From Dehalococcoidia bacterium (GTDB lineage: Bacteria; Chloroflexota; Dehalococcoidia; GIF9; AB-539-J10): a DNA stretch of 64,000 bases. The position numbers and the translations under genes are program-made. The DNA lies in the NCBI GenBank assembly GCA_016930935.1, contig JAFGFT010000041.1, positions 6,075 through 70,074 of the forward strand, in the 5' to 3' direction. Under the pieces are notes generated by a model. It was not told the origin of the DNA, made no database searches, and saw only the letters and a list, made by a program, of their open reading frames with translations. Below are positions 51,751-55,359 of the stretch, one piece after another; position 1 is the stretch's first letter; each line of letters begins with the position of its first letter.

Positions 51751-52824
51751 CTAGTTGTCAGTGGCGTGGCTGAAGCTCTTCCTCGTTCTATACAGAGTCT
51801 TACAGGCATCGATGATATCCTTCAGTTCGTCTGGGGTGACCATCTGCGGACCATCCACCAGTGCCTCCGCCGGGTTGTAGTGTGATTCAATCATTAATCC
51901 GTCCGCACCCGCTGAGATTGACGCACAACTCATATCGAAGATGAGGTCGCGCCGTCCCGTGGCGTGGCTCGGGTCAACGATGATGGGCAGGTAGGTCTCC
52001 TTGTGCACCACAGGGATTGCCGCAAGGTCAAGCGTGTACCTGGTGTAACTCTTTCCTTTGCCAACTGGTACGATGCCGCGCTCACAGAGGATGATGTCCT
52101 TGTTGCTCTCCGCTGCGATGTACTCGCTGAATGACAGCATTTCCTCGATGCTTGCGCCGAAGTGCCGCTTCAGCAAAACAGGTTTCCCCTGCTGTGCCAC
52201 CTGCACTAGAAGATCCTGGTCATACATGTTCCGGGCGCCGATGTGCATTATGTCCACATACTTCGCCATCATCTCAATCATCGATTCGCCCCTGACCTCG
52301 GTGACTATCGGCATGTCGAACGCGTCACCGGCCTGCTTGAGCCAACTCAGAGCTTCTTCAGCATCCTTCACTCCATTGGAACCCAGACCCTGGAAGGAAT
52401 GGACGGAGCTTCTAGGCTTGAAGATGCCACCCCGTAGTATGTGCGCTCCAGCTTTCTTAACCTCCTCGGCCATGCGCATTATCTGCTGCCTGCTCTCAAC
52501 CGCACACGGTCCGGCGATGATGACAGGCTCACCGTTGCCGATATGGATATCCCCGATCCTTACGGTCTTGTGTGCTCCGGGCTCCGCAAGAAACTTCGCA
52601 TACTCTCTGCCTATGAGCTTGTACGGTGTTTCAACTCTCGCCGCCTCTTTCACTCCCGGTAGCGTGGCCACCTTGTCGAAGTCGAGTAGACGCTCGTCGC
52701 CAACAGGGCCGACAACGGTGAGGTACTCGCCATGAATAACGGCGGCTCTCAGCCCGCTGCCTTCCACCTCGGCAATAACTCTCTGGATGTCCTCTTCAGT
52801 CGCGTCCGTCTTCATGATAATCAC
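51751..52824 (-). CDS. aroF: 3-deoxy-7-phosphoheptulonate (DAHP) synthase, type I-beta with an N-terminal ferredoxin-like regulatory domain
   Basis: VIIMKTDATEEDIQRVIAEVEGSGL...PYKLIGREY...IIAGPCAVESRQQIMRMAEEVKKAGAHILRGGIFKPRSSVHSFQGLG is colinear, from memory, with the Thermotoga-type enzyme. GGAGGA lies 7 nt before GTG 52824; ATG 52839 is an alternative start. Confidence 0.9.
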   Translation of the reverse strand: MIIMKTDATEEDIQRVIAEVEGSGLRAAVIHGEYLTVVGPVGDERLLDFDKVATLPGVKEAARVETPYKLIGREYAKFLAEPGAHKTVRIGDIHIGNGEPVIIAGPCAVESRQQIMRMAEEVKKAGAHILRGGIFKPRSSVHSFQGLGSNGVKDAEEALSWLKQAGDAFDMPIVTEVRGESMIEMMAKYVDIMHIGARNMYDQDLLVQVAQQGKPVLLKRHFGASIEEMLSFSEYIAAESNKDIILCERGIVPVGKGKSYTRYTLDLAAIPVVHKETYLPIIVDPSHATGRRDLIFDMSCASISAGADGLMIESHYNPAEALVDGPQMVTPDELKDIIDACKTLYRTRKSFSHATDN

Positions 52825-52881
52825 TGTGCCATCCTCCATTCTCTATGCTGCCTGCGACCCGTCAGGGCATCCGGTCAGCGC

Positions 52882-52911
52882 AAAAAGAAAAGGACCCTCC
52901 TGGGAGGGTCC
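52882..52911 (-). terminator. rho-independent terminator immediately upstream of aroF (candidate attenuator terminator)
   Basis: The minus-strand RNA is GGACCCUCC-CA-GGAGGGUCC (52911-52892) followed by UUUUCUUUUU (52891-52882). It lies 57 nt upstream of the aroF GTG start at 52824 (42 nt upstream of the alternative ATG at 52839). Confidence 0.65.
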
Positions 52912-52941
52912 TTGTTTCATTCAGGTGATTTCTACGCTACA

Positions 52942-53025
52942 TCACGTTGCAAGACCGCTCCCAGGCGTGCGGGTTGTAAAGCTAAAGAACCACGCAAATG
53001 AGCACTGAACCTGGTAGCTAATCAT
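52942..53025 (-). CDS. candidate aromatic-rich leader peptide (27 aa)
   Basis: ATG 53025 to TGA 52942-52944 gives MISYQVQCSFAWFFSFTTRTPGSGLAT. Five of seven consecutive residues are Phe or Trp. It is followed by alternative antiterminator and terminator pairings. The Shine-Dalgarno is weak (GAAGAGAGAUA). Confidence 0.45.
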   Translation of the reverse strand: MISYQVQCSFAWFFSFTTRTPGSGLAT

Positions 53026-53061
53026 TATCTCTCTTCGTCTCGCACCGATGTGTGAGAGATC

Positions 53062-53090
53062 AGTGTATTGTGGTGCAGCACCACTGTCAA
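53062..53090 (-). promoter_or_regulatory. candidate sigma70-type promoter of the aroF leader
   Basis: The minus strand reads TTGACA (53090-53085), a 17 nt spacer, then TACACT (53067-53062). The predicted start site is about 30 nt before the leader ATG. Confidence 0.45.
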
Positions 53091-53132
53091 GTTCCACGCC
53101 AGCCTGTTCCCCATCTGGGGACTTTGGAGCTG

Positions 53133-54416
53133 CTATCCGGGATTCATGACCCGCCCGACGAATAGAATGGTATCCGTCTCCACATCCCTGATGAGAAAGA
53201 CGAACGGGCGGTCGATGGTCAGAGTCATCGGTTCAGCGGGCATTGCAGTGGCTTCCATCACGACCGCTGTCGCAGCTGCCGCCTCAGTCCCCGCCTCATC
53301 AACCTCCACGAATGCTTTGTGTATCACGTCTGATATGAACAGGTTCCGTCCCCCGTCCATGCCGGAGAAGTCAGCCCTTGATGGGTCGAACGCAGCGTCC
53401 ATGCCGAGTTGCGACAGAGCCTTGCTCAAGCTGAAGCTTGTCTCCATTTTGAAACGGGGCATCGTCAGGCTGAGTTGGGTATTCTGCAAGCCATCGATGG
53501 TGTCTGACACAATCGCATAGTCCAAAGACTGTTCGACGGCACTGAAACGCCCTGACGCCGGCACAACAATGACCATGGACATCTCATATCCGTCATAGGG
53601 CAATTCCACGACATCATAGTCTGGTGCACTCCGGTAACGGAAAGAGTCCGTCTGATGCATCATGGGCACAGTCACCTCACCTCCTTCGAGGAGATGGAAC
53701 ACACCTGGCGCGGTGAAGTCCTTTTCGAACTGGGACGCCCATGCTGCGTTGAAATAGACTGCGTTGGTGAGGACGAGCCGTGTCATCGGATTGATACCGC
53801 CTTCCGGAATCAGGTCTTCGATGCGGTCCTCCGTCTGCTCCTCTACCCAATCGTTGATAGCAAGCCGCGATGGCTCAGGAGCAGCCTCAAAATCAAGCAC
53901 GCGGAGCCCTGCACCGTAATTCATAGCCAATGTGTCGAGATACTCCTCCAGAAAGTTGTAGCCCTTCTGGCCCCAGATGGCATTCACCACATTCAACCGG
54001 AATCCCTCGCCATCCTTGCCCTGGACTCCTTGACCTCGCGTGTTTAGTGTCTGGTCAAGAGCATTGAATGTTGTGTGAAGACGGTCAGACGGTAAGTCAA
54101 AGTGCAGCGTGGAAGCCATCTCTGCTTCCGTATCGCTCTGTGCCCCGGCATACGTCATCGCCAGGGCGAGGGAGATGCTGTACGGAGAATAGAAAACGTT
54201 CTCAGAGCCACCTGCAACTTTGTGATAGAGGTCAAAAGCGAATGCACCGTTGCCTTCGGCAAGCGCGCGTGCGTCGTCTGGTGGCACAGATATGTTTTCG
54301 TCTCTCGGTTCCGCTGAGCGCAACTCATCGGCTGCTGCCCCTGGAAGGGATGGGGTGCACCCCGTCAGACTGGCCACAAGCAGCATGGTGGCAAGAACCA
54401 ACTGTATCGCACGCAT
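53133..54416 (-). CDS. serpin family protein, lipoprotein
   Basis: The reactive-centre-loop hinge FVEVDEAGTEAAAATAVVMEATAMPAEP is followed by IDRPFVFLIRD. N-terminus MRAIQLVLATMLLVASLTGC has a lipobox. GGGAGG lies upstream of ATG 54416. Confidence 0.85.
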   Translation of the reverse strand: MRAIQLVLATMLLVASLTGCTPSLPGAAADELRSAEPRDENISVPPDDARALAEGNGAFAFDLYHKVAGGSENVFYSPYSISLALAMTYAGAQSDTEAEMASTLHFDLPSDRLHTTFNALDQTLNTRGQGVQGKDGEGFRLNVVNAIWGQKGYNFLEEYLDTLAMNYGAGLRVLDFEAAPEPSRLAINDWVEEQTEDRIEDLIPEGGINPMTRLVLTNAVYFNAAWASQFEKDFTAPGVFHLLEGGEVTVPMMHQTDSFRYRSAPDYDVVELPYDGYEMSMVIVVPASGRFSAVEQSLDYAIVSDTIDGLQNTQLSLTMPRFKMETSFSLSKALSQLGMDAAFDPSRADFSGMDGGRNLFISDVIHKAFVEVDEAGTEAAAATAVVMEATAMPAEPMTLTIDRPFVFLIRDVETDTILFVGRVMNPG

Positions 54417-54564: not shown

Positions 54565-55359
54565 CTACGCCGTCGGTCCGTATACCCGTCTCCGTATCAC
54601 CTGGATCAGTATCCCGATGCTGACTACTACTATCCCGGCGATGGCGGCAACAAGGACTGCGTATGCCGCAGGGTTGGCCAGCGCCATTCGTTTCAGCGCG
54701 ATGCCCAGCAACGCCCAGTCAACCACGAGAGCGAAGAAAATGTCACGCCGCGTAATCAGCATCGCGATGGCAATCACAACACCCACTACGATGACCGCAA
54801 CAGCCCAGTATTGTTCTTCTATTCCAAAACCGTTCCACCCGACAGACACGAGAAGGGCTGTCACATTGGCAATAGTGGCGATGGTGATCCACCCGAGGTA
54901 AACGCTGAACGGAAGATGGACCAGATACCGTACGGCGCCGGGGACGCTCGACACACCTATGCCAAGGCGCAGATAAATGAAGAGCAGGCTACCGAGCAGG
55001 AGCAACATCAGTCCAAGGGAAAGGGCAAGGAGTTCGTAGTGCCACGCGAATATCCAGCCCATGTTGGCAATACAGGTGAGAAGAAACCACAATCCGATCT
55101 CACCGGTGAAGAATGCGTCGGCGCTGTCTCTCCTGGCAACTGCCAGTTGGTAGACAACGAAGAGTCCCAGAAGCAGGTAGATTAGACCCCAGATTGAGAA
55201 AGTAAGGCCTGCTGGCACAAACAAGTTCTCGTACTTGTCAGAGAGTGCTCCTGTGCTCATTCCGTTGATCGGGAGCGTCACCGCAAGACCGTTGACGACA
55301 ACCGTTCCGAGGAATCCCAGCAGGTTGAGTACCGGAAGCGCATACCTGTTTTCCCTCAT
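54565..55359 (-). CDS. TspO/MBR-related (tryptophan-rich sensory protein-like) membrane protein
   Basis: 264 aa polytopic protein. LPINGMSTGALSDKYENLFVPAGLTFSIWGLIYLLLG matches a motif I recall from proteins annotated this way. Family assignment not verified. Confidence 0.5.
   Translation of the reverse strand: MRENRYALPVLNLLGFLGTVVVNGLAVTLPINGMSTGALSDKYENLFVPAGLTFSIWGLIYLLLGLFVVYQLAVARRDSADAFFTGEIGLWFLLTCIANMGWIFAWHYELLALSLGLMLLLLGSLLFIYLRLGIGVSSVPGAVRYLVHLPFSVYLGWITIATIANVTALLVSVGWNGFGIEEQYWAVAVIVVGVVIAIAMLITRRDIFFALVVDWALLGIALKRMALANPAAYAVLVAAIAGIVVVSIGILIQVIRRRVYGPTA

Follow-up and report, generated by a model that had tools for sequence, protein, structure and literature searches.

Classical transcription attenuators, such as the enterobacterial pheA leader (pheL) and those of trp, his, thr, leu and ilv, combine regulatory codons in a short leader open reading frame (ORF) with four RNA segments that can pair as 1:2 (the anti-antiterminator), 2:3 (the antiterminator) or 3:4 (the terminator). 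In Firmicutes, RNA control of amino acid genes is usually exerted by T-box leaders, which have also been reported for some Chloroflexi; these too choose between terminator and antiterminator in the 5' leader of the gene and report tRNA charging. Closer to the system described here, a leader peptide (aroR, Phe-Tyr-Phe) ahead of aroF in Corynebacterium glutamicum was predicted from RNA sequencing (Mentz et al. 2013, PMC4046766), and aroF transcription in that organism is reported to rise with ribosome stalling under Phe limitation (Neshat et al. 2014, summarised in PMC11802643). In Acholeplasma, the uORFC-13-1 motif is a predicted upstream ORF with one or more Phe codons directly before an intrinsic terminator ahead of aroF; its suggested role is to sense how fast Phe is incorporated, and it has 24 representatives, from Acholeplasma and environmental sequences (PMC8632094). 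Here we analysed a 64-kb stretch of DNA from the metagenome-assembled genome of an uncultured Dehalococcoidia bacterium (Chloroflexota; contig JAFGFT010000041.1; hereafter the window), in which an earlier note had pointed to a candidate leader-peptide attenuator ahead of aroF, the gene for 3-deoxy-7-phosphoheptulonate (DAHP) synthase (DAHPS). The leader region lies on the minus strand and runs from the stop codon of a serpin gene (53133) to the aroF start codon.

We found that this region is best read as a ribosome-mediated leader-peptide transcription attenuator controlling the DAHP synthase gene, an interpretation to which we assign a probability of roughly 0.88. All five elements that the earlier note had placed on the minus strand are present where it had put them (Table 1), and comparison with relatives supports their function. 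The arrangement has the four-segment logic of the classical leaders, with regulatory codons and the 1:2, 2:3 and 3:4 pairings, and the codon run, with its mix of three amino acids, resembles that of the multivalent thr and ilv leaders. The arrangement differs from theirs in that segment 1 precedes the regulatory codons, which are thus enclosed by the 1:2 helix, and in that the leader ORF has no Shine-Dalgarno (SD) sequence; moreover, whereas pheL serves a gene of a terminal branch, the gene regulated here is the DAHP synthase of the common pathway. As in C. glutamicum, a short leader ORF with aromatic codons precedes a DAHP synthase gene, with the same regulated step and the same logic. The likeness is stated here as one of function. 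aroR is actinobacterial and has three aromatic codons, whereas the chloroflexotal leader has five in seven codons and its family nearly always has one Trp. Experimental tests exist for the C. glutamicum element, while the Dehalococcoidia leader is known from sequence. The DAHPS encoded by C. glutamicum aroF is of a different subtype from the window's enzyme, which we take to be a Thermotoga-type enzyme with a ferredoxin-like N-terminal domain. The uORFC-13-1 motif, for its part, requires one Phe codon or more, in contrast to the mixed Phe/Tyr/Trp run found here, is confined to Acholeplasma and environmental sequences and is a prediction only, and T-box leaders differ in that sensing in the Dehalococcoidia leader is predicted to proceed through the decoding of a translated ORF.

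Table 1. Features of the aroF leader region, in window coordinates
Feature	Coordinates	Strand	Basis
Sigma-70-type promoter: -35 TTGACA (53090-53085), 17-nt spacer, -10 TACACT (53067-53062)	53062-53090	-	Consensus scan, 10/12 matches
Leader peptide ORF, 27 codons plus UGA, MISYQVQCSFAWFFSFTTRTPGSGLAT (ATG 53025, stop 52944-52942)	52942-53025	-	ORF map, conservation
Segment 1, GCUACCAGG, codons 3-5, 5' strand of the 1:2 anti-antiterminator	53010-53018	-	Minimum-free-energy fold, RNAalifold, pair counts
Regulatory run, codons 10-16, UUU GCG UGG UUC UUU AGC UUU (FAWFFSF)	52978-52998	-	Codon conservation, shuffles
Segment 2, CCUGGGAGCGGUCUU, codons 21-25; its 52965-52953 part is CCUGGGAGCGGUC	52951-52965	-	Duplex search, covariation
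Segment 3, AAGGACCCUCCCAGG, terminator 5' arm and loop	52899-52913	-	Pairs with segment 2 or 4
Segment 4, GAGGGUCCUU (52899-52890), and U tract, UUUUCUUUUU (to 52882)	52882-52899	-	Terminator scan
Terminator hairpin, AAGGACCCUC-CCAG-GAGGGUCCUU, 10-bp GC-rich stem with 4-nt loop, -18.1 kcal/mol	52890-52913	-	Terminator scan
SD sequence of aroF, GGAGGA, strong, 7 nt ahead of the GTG	52832-52837	-	
DAHP synthase gene aroF, 357 aa, start GTG 52824	51751-52824	-	Pfam PF00793 and PF18152, ORF map, identity to MBN1856586.1

Scanning the DAHPS protein against 185,579 species genomes returned 80 loci (numbered with an L below), all of them in metagenome-assembled genomes (MAGs) of Dehalococcoidia or Chloroflexota, at 64-92% protein identity. 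A search of proteins for a cultured Dehalococcoides or Dehalogenimonas relative found none among the best 120 matches; 7,844 proteins matched at E values of 1e-60 or below. We counted mini-ORFs at the 75 loci whose upstream DNA extends for 260 nt or more, and terminators in 76 leaders. At 72 of these 75 loci there is a mini-ORF that begins with ATG, is 18-35 codons long and has four or more Phe, Trp or Tyr residues per seven; it starts about 165-265 nt before the DAHPS start. The three exceptions could be explained (at L023 the contig ends inside the run WFYSYYF, L024 has an FFF run and L068 a GTG start), so that an aromatic-rich mini-ORF such as the earlier note picked out is conserved upstream of DAHPS orthologues and paralogues at effectively 75/75 loci. 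By comparison, only 3.3% of dinucleotide shuffles reached at least four aromatics in seven and 0.33% at least five, and the aromatic criterion was reached on the opposite strand at 0 of the 75 loci, where the maximum was three.

An intrinsic terminator lies between the mini-ORF and the DAHPS gene in 75 of the 76 leaders, with median gaps of 31 nt from the leader stop and 51 nt to the gene; the distance from hairpin to gene ranges from 32 to 106 nt across the family. In the window, the terminator scan recovered the hairpin and U tract before aroF that the earlier note had described. The sole aromatic leader ORF without a terminator by the criteria used (MLAYFASPRLYFAYFTFTGRTRSAWGTLVWRCS) is that of L080:2550-3000 (+), where the termination signal could be degenerate or of another type. 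Only the window, L007 and L024 have a serpin gene as the immediate upstream neighbour, and at 38 of 60 loci the closest ORF on that side is divergent; because the upstream neighbours differ in this way, the leader element belongs to the DAHPS gene and not to the gene upstream.

The combination is also rare outside this context. No other mini-ORF with at least five aromatics in seven and a terminator was found in the whole window, and the strict leader criteria gave one false positive when run on related DNA totalling 906 kb, DAHPS leaders excluded. This hit, a Trp-rich mini-ORF (MSLPIRRLIWLWYAWFKDWPGR) with a hairpin and T tract at L035:1859-2021 (+), had looked like a second leader and was rejected when it proved to lie out of frame within the gene for a 383-aa transporter.

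How the leader has been conserved differs between its parts. The aromatic codons of the window leader are codons 10, 12, 13, 14 and 16, so that five of seven encode Phe or Trp, and in the close group these positions are aromatic in 86-100% of sequences. The second position of the aromatic codons, on the other hand, is only 36-50% identical, except in codon 14, with Phe, Tyr and Trp replacing one another. The TPGSG codons (20-24), which make up segment 2, are 86-100% identical in the same group even at wobble positions. The aromatic run is thus kept as a class, which argues for selection on decoding, whereas segment 2 is kept at wobble positions, which argues for selection on RNA pairing. Across the whole family, the leader peptides have only the aromatic run in common. 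Phe occurs in 76/76 leaders, Tyr in 74 and Trp in 67, with exactly one Trp in 53, and in some relatives the aromatic density reaches 7/7.

We next consider the RNA structures of the window leader. Segments 1 and 2 pair at 8 of 9 positions, giving a 1:2 hairpin of -20.4 kcal/mol whose helix encloses the aromatic codons. Segment 2 begins 12 nt past the last aromatic codon and ends 6 nt ahead of the stop. Its pairing with segment 3 uses the 5' arm and loop of the terminator and so is mutually exclusive with it, as the earlier note had proposed; the length given there (8 + 4, or 12 bp) proved too short, since the duplex comprises 8 bp, a bulged C and a further 6 bp, 14 bp in all, at -22.6 kcal/mol. 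When untranslated, the full leader adopts 1:2 plus 3:4 at -62.1 kcal/mol, with z = -2.5 relative to dinucleotide shuffles, and we conclude that the arrangement is not due to chance.

We then asked, at each locus, which sequence in the interval between the aromatic run and the terminator pairs best with the terminator 5' arm and loop. A 2:3 duplex was found at nearly all loci, with a mean z of -3.5, and at 62 of 75 no more than 2 of 200 shuffles did better. At most loci the segment 2 so identified begins 12-25 nt past the last aromatic codon; its 3' end usually falls 3-8 nt ahead of the leader stop. Cognate pairs of segments 2 and 3 averaged -20.5 kcal/mol, compared with -17.0 kcal/mol when partners were swapped between loci, and 0 of 10,000 permutations were as good.

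The earlier note had named compensatory changes in relatives as a check on its pairings, and we found them in all three helices, using pair counts from a MAFFT alignment of all 75 leaders that was built without structural information. For the 2:3 antiterminator, 89.2% of cells were paired (66.5% in the best slid register), with 68 double-change cells compared with 25.3 in shuffles, of which 0/500 were as high. The 3:4 terminator was paired in 87.3% of cells (best slid register, 74.9%) and had 74 double-change cells as against 35.8 in shuffles, with 8 of its 10 pairs changing on both sides. The corresponding figures for the 1:2 anti-antiterminator were 71.8% and 59.4%, with 62 double-change cells and 28.5 in shuffles. 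One change links the three strands in the window itself: segment 1 has an A (CCAGG), segment 2 a U (CCUGG) and the terminator loop an A (CCCAGG), the corresponding nucleotides being G, C and G in every one of the 21 close relatives. Independently, the RNAalifold consensus of 22 close relatives contains both the 1:2 helix and the terminator.

To model the effect of a translating ribosome, we folded only the RNA 3' of the ribosome footprint. (Forcing the footprint to be single stranded by constraint was rejected as not physical, since helices then closed around the ribosome.) With the A site at F10, W12, F13, F14 or F16, the 2:3 pairing was the minimum-energy fold even when segment 4 was included, at -26.7 to -30.2 kcal/mol, whereas with the ribosome at codon 21 or beyond, or at the stop, the terminator alone remained. 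The comparison of folds suggested in the earlier note thus yields the switch that it had predicted, and because a stall leads to 2:3 and passage to segment 2 or the stop leads to the terminator, classical attenuation is the best explanation of the leader.

The mechanism that we propose is as follows. When charged Phe-tRNA and Trp-tRNA are plentiful, the ribosome would pass the aromatic codons, move onto segment 2 and the stop codon and cover segment 2; the 3:4 terminator would then fold and RNA polymerase would halt at about 52882, ahead of aroF. When charged Phe-tRNA or Trp-tRNA is scarce, the ribosome would stall in the FAWFFSF run, whose codons are the proposed stall sites, and leave segment 2 exposed. 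A ribosome stalled there would sit inside the 1:2 loop, so that the 1:2 helix could not form, and segment 2 would stay free because it starts 12 nt downstream of the run. Segment 2 would then pair with segment 3 upon its transcription, no terminator would form and aroF would be transcribed. Transcripts that are not translated would fold as 1:2 plus 3:4 and be terminated. Since leaders of the family mix Phe, Tyr and Trp codons, they would sense all three end products, and the regulated gene encodes the first step of the pathway that produces the sensed amino acids. The analysis establishes the sequence elements, their conservation, the covariation of the three helices, the geometry and the folding energies; leader translation, stalling and a read-through response to aromatic amino acid supply are inferred. 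Classical ribosome-coupled attenuation, and hence transcription-translation coupling, very probably operates in Chloroflexota.

Four points weigh against this interpretation. First, the leader ORF has no SD sequence above background anywhere in the family (-2.85 kcal/mol; random positions give -2.60 and the DAHPS genes average -9.8), which bears out for window and family alike the caveat about a weak leader SD raised in the earlier note; leader translation is therefore deduced only from the conserved ATG, frame, aromatic codons and stop position. The SD-poor stretch occupies 53026-53045 (-) in the window and the equivalent positions in L001-L078. Second, the 1:2 helix, which the earlier note had described as enclosing the aromatic codons, holds in the window and the close group but is significant at only 36 of 74 loci, about half. 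Third, untranslated RNA up to segment 3 slightly favours 2:3 at equilibrium, before segment 4 has been made, so that basal termination would depend on the kinetics of cotranscriptional folding. Fourth, the covariation statistics given above are inflated to an unknown degree by kinship among the loci.

The first of these points, together with the fact that segments 2, 3 and 4 are the most conserved nucleotides of the leader, lends something to an alternative in which the switch is real but is set by uncharged tRNA in the manner of a T-box, by a small-molecule riboswitch or by an RNA-binding protein, the mini-ORF being incidental. We consider this unlikely. A scan of 52600-53400 against Rfam 15 at E values up to 10 gave no T-box or riboswitch and only subthreshold matches, to Phe_leader and to small RNAs, the latter driven by the terminator; likewise, 20 relatives matched no family at the gathering score. 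With regard to the T-box (RF00230) in particular, neither a specifier stem nor a T-box sequence was found, and there was no Rfam match of the uORFC-13-1 kind in the window. The weak match to Phe_leader (RF01859) speaks for attenuation in that it aligned over the full length of the model, but at 24.4 bits (E = 0.13) it falls below the gathering score of 55, so that the leader is not a member of that family. Furthermore, the ATG, the frame, the stop position and the aromatic run are kept at effectively all 75 loci despite differing nucleotides and residues, and U, A and G all occur at the second codon position (giving Phe, Tyr or Trp), which points to selection for decoding as opposed to selection for a ligand pocket. 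The distance between the aromatic codons and segment 2 also fits a ribosome footprint.

Conservation of an ORF might also mean that its product matters, the mini-ORF then encoding a small peptide, hydrophobic or aromatic, that has its own function, the hairpin ending its transcript and aroF having a separate promoter. The TPGSG motif at the C terminus of the peptide, conserved among close relatives, would fit such a role. The peptide sequence is not conserved across the family, however, where only its aromatic composition persists, and the TPGSG codons, being those of segment 2, are kept even at wobble positions, which places the constraint on the RNA. In addition, this explanation gives no role to the 2:3 covariation, and we found no promoter-like site between the hairpin and aroF, a gap of only 32-106 nt in the family. 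We regard it as very improbable.

We attach even less weight to the idea that the leader acts mainly by translational coupling or reinitiation, raising aroF translation without recourse to termination, although this kind of function has been suggested for numerous leader genes in bacteria (PMC4833913). A strong terminator separates the leader stop from the aroF start 118 nt further on, and aroF has a strong SD sequence of its own that the terminator does not sequester. Finally, that a spurious intergenic ORF happens to precede a hairpin that is merely the serpin terminator, as the position of the hairpin downstream of the serpin stop on the same strand might suggest, can be dismissed as next to impossible given the varied upstream neighbours, the conserved promoter between serpin and leader, the shuffle and opposite-strand statistics and protein identities that exclude the loci as assembly duplicates of one sequence.

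Ten MAGs hold two DAHPS paralogues (L001/L011, L002/L012, L003/L020, L004/L008, L006/L015, L007/L019, L009/L016, L010/L021, L024/L014 and L005/L022), and a neighbour-joining tree splits these into two clades. Leaders of clade A, which includes the window, are Phe rich (means of 3.9 Phe, 0.9 Trp and 1.0 Tyr), whereas those of clade B are Tyr rich (3.0 Phe, 1.0 Trp and 3.9 Tyr); the Tyr counts of the two clades differ with p = 6e-5 (Mann-Whitney test). The leaders of remoter lineages are Tyr rich, with Phe and one Trp, which suggests that the ancestral leader sensed all three aromatic amino acids and that specialisation followed duplication. No second DAHPS paralogue was found within the 64 kb of the window.

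Escherichia coli divides labour among the DAHP synthases AroG, AroF and AroH. We tentatively propose, at somewhat less than even odds, that after duplication in the Dehalococcoidales lineage the leader codons were retuned, such that the isozyme of the window's clade would be derepressed mainly by a shortage of Phe or Trp and the other by a shortage of Tyr, with labour split through leader codon composition alone and the SD-less leader ORFs being translated. If this is true, classical multivalent (Phe, Tyr and Trp) attenuation would here be seen class-wide for the first time in Chloroflexota. The leader codons offer a readout, from sequence alone, of the amino acids to which each DAHP synthase isozyme would respond.

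Dehalococcoidia are abundant subsurface and dechlorinating bacteria, most of them uncultured, and to our knowledge almost nothing has been established about their gene regulation. The leaders described here make up a strongly supported cis-regulatory RNA family for the class, with at least 75 loci, that is absent from Rfam 15; in the literature searched we found no description of it and nothing relevant on leader peptides, attenuation or DAHP synthase in Dehalococcoidia or Chloroflexi. The mechanism is a textbook one and leader control of DAHPS genes has precedents; what is new for Chloroflexota is the conserved family. Leaders without an SD sequence, in genomes that otherwise use strong GGAGG sites, also pose the question of how the leader ORF is initiated.

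The promoter-like site reported in the earlier note is the only one in the 3.2 kb scanned, and its conservation bears out the reading given there: CTTGACA-N17/18-TACACT or TACAAT is kept about 30 nt ahead of the leader ATG in 22/22 close relatives. Transcription is predicted to start near 53055, about 30 nt 5' of the leader ORF. The spacer between the -35 and -10 elements of the window contains a perfect inverted repeat, GTGGTGC-T-GCACCAC (53068-53084, minus strand), that resembles an operator. We considered it as a repressor-binding site and dropped the idea; the repeat is missing from all 21 close relatives and for that reason is probably due to chance.

At the other end of the leader ORF, each of the three frames has a stop codon within 19 nt (UGAUGUAGCGUAG; window 52932-52944, minus strand). 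Such an arrangement was present at 24 of 76 loci, compared with 10.9 +/- 2.9 in shuffles. Ribosomes that slip out of frame on hungry aromatic codons may be caught by these stops, or the stops may reflect shared ancestry.

A 264-aa ORF at 54565-55359 (-) in the window encodes a hydrophobic, membrane-like protein with no Pfam match at E values up to 0.001. In the window aroF is monocistronic, as the neighbouring downstream gene is convergent. The aroF product matches PF00793 (DAHP_synth_1) at 1.6e-72 and, at its N terminus, PF18152 (DAHP_snth_FXD, ferredoxin-like) at 2.8e-16, the latter corresponding to the N-terminal regulatory domain that the earlier note had attributed to the enzyme. The protein is identical to GenBank entry MBN1856586.1, in which the same GTG start is annotated. 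Several JGI and ENA gene calls in the same 90%-identity protein cluster give a DAHPS of 389 aa, 32 codons longer than the 357-aa protein. Because the starts of these longer versions would fall in or upstream of the terminator, they are probably miscalled, and recognition of the leader would correct gene calls of this kind that run through the terminator.

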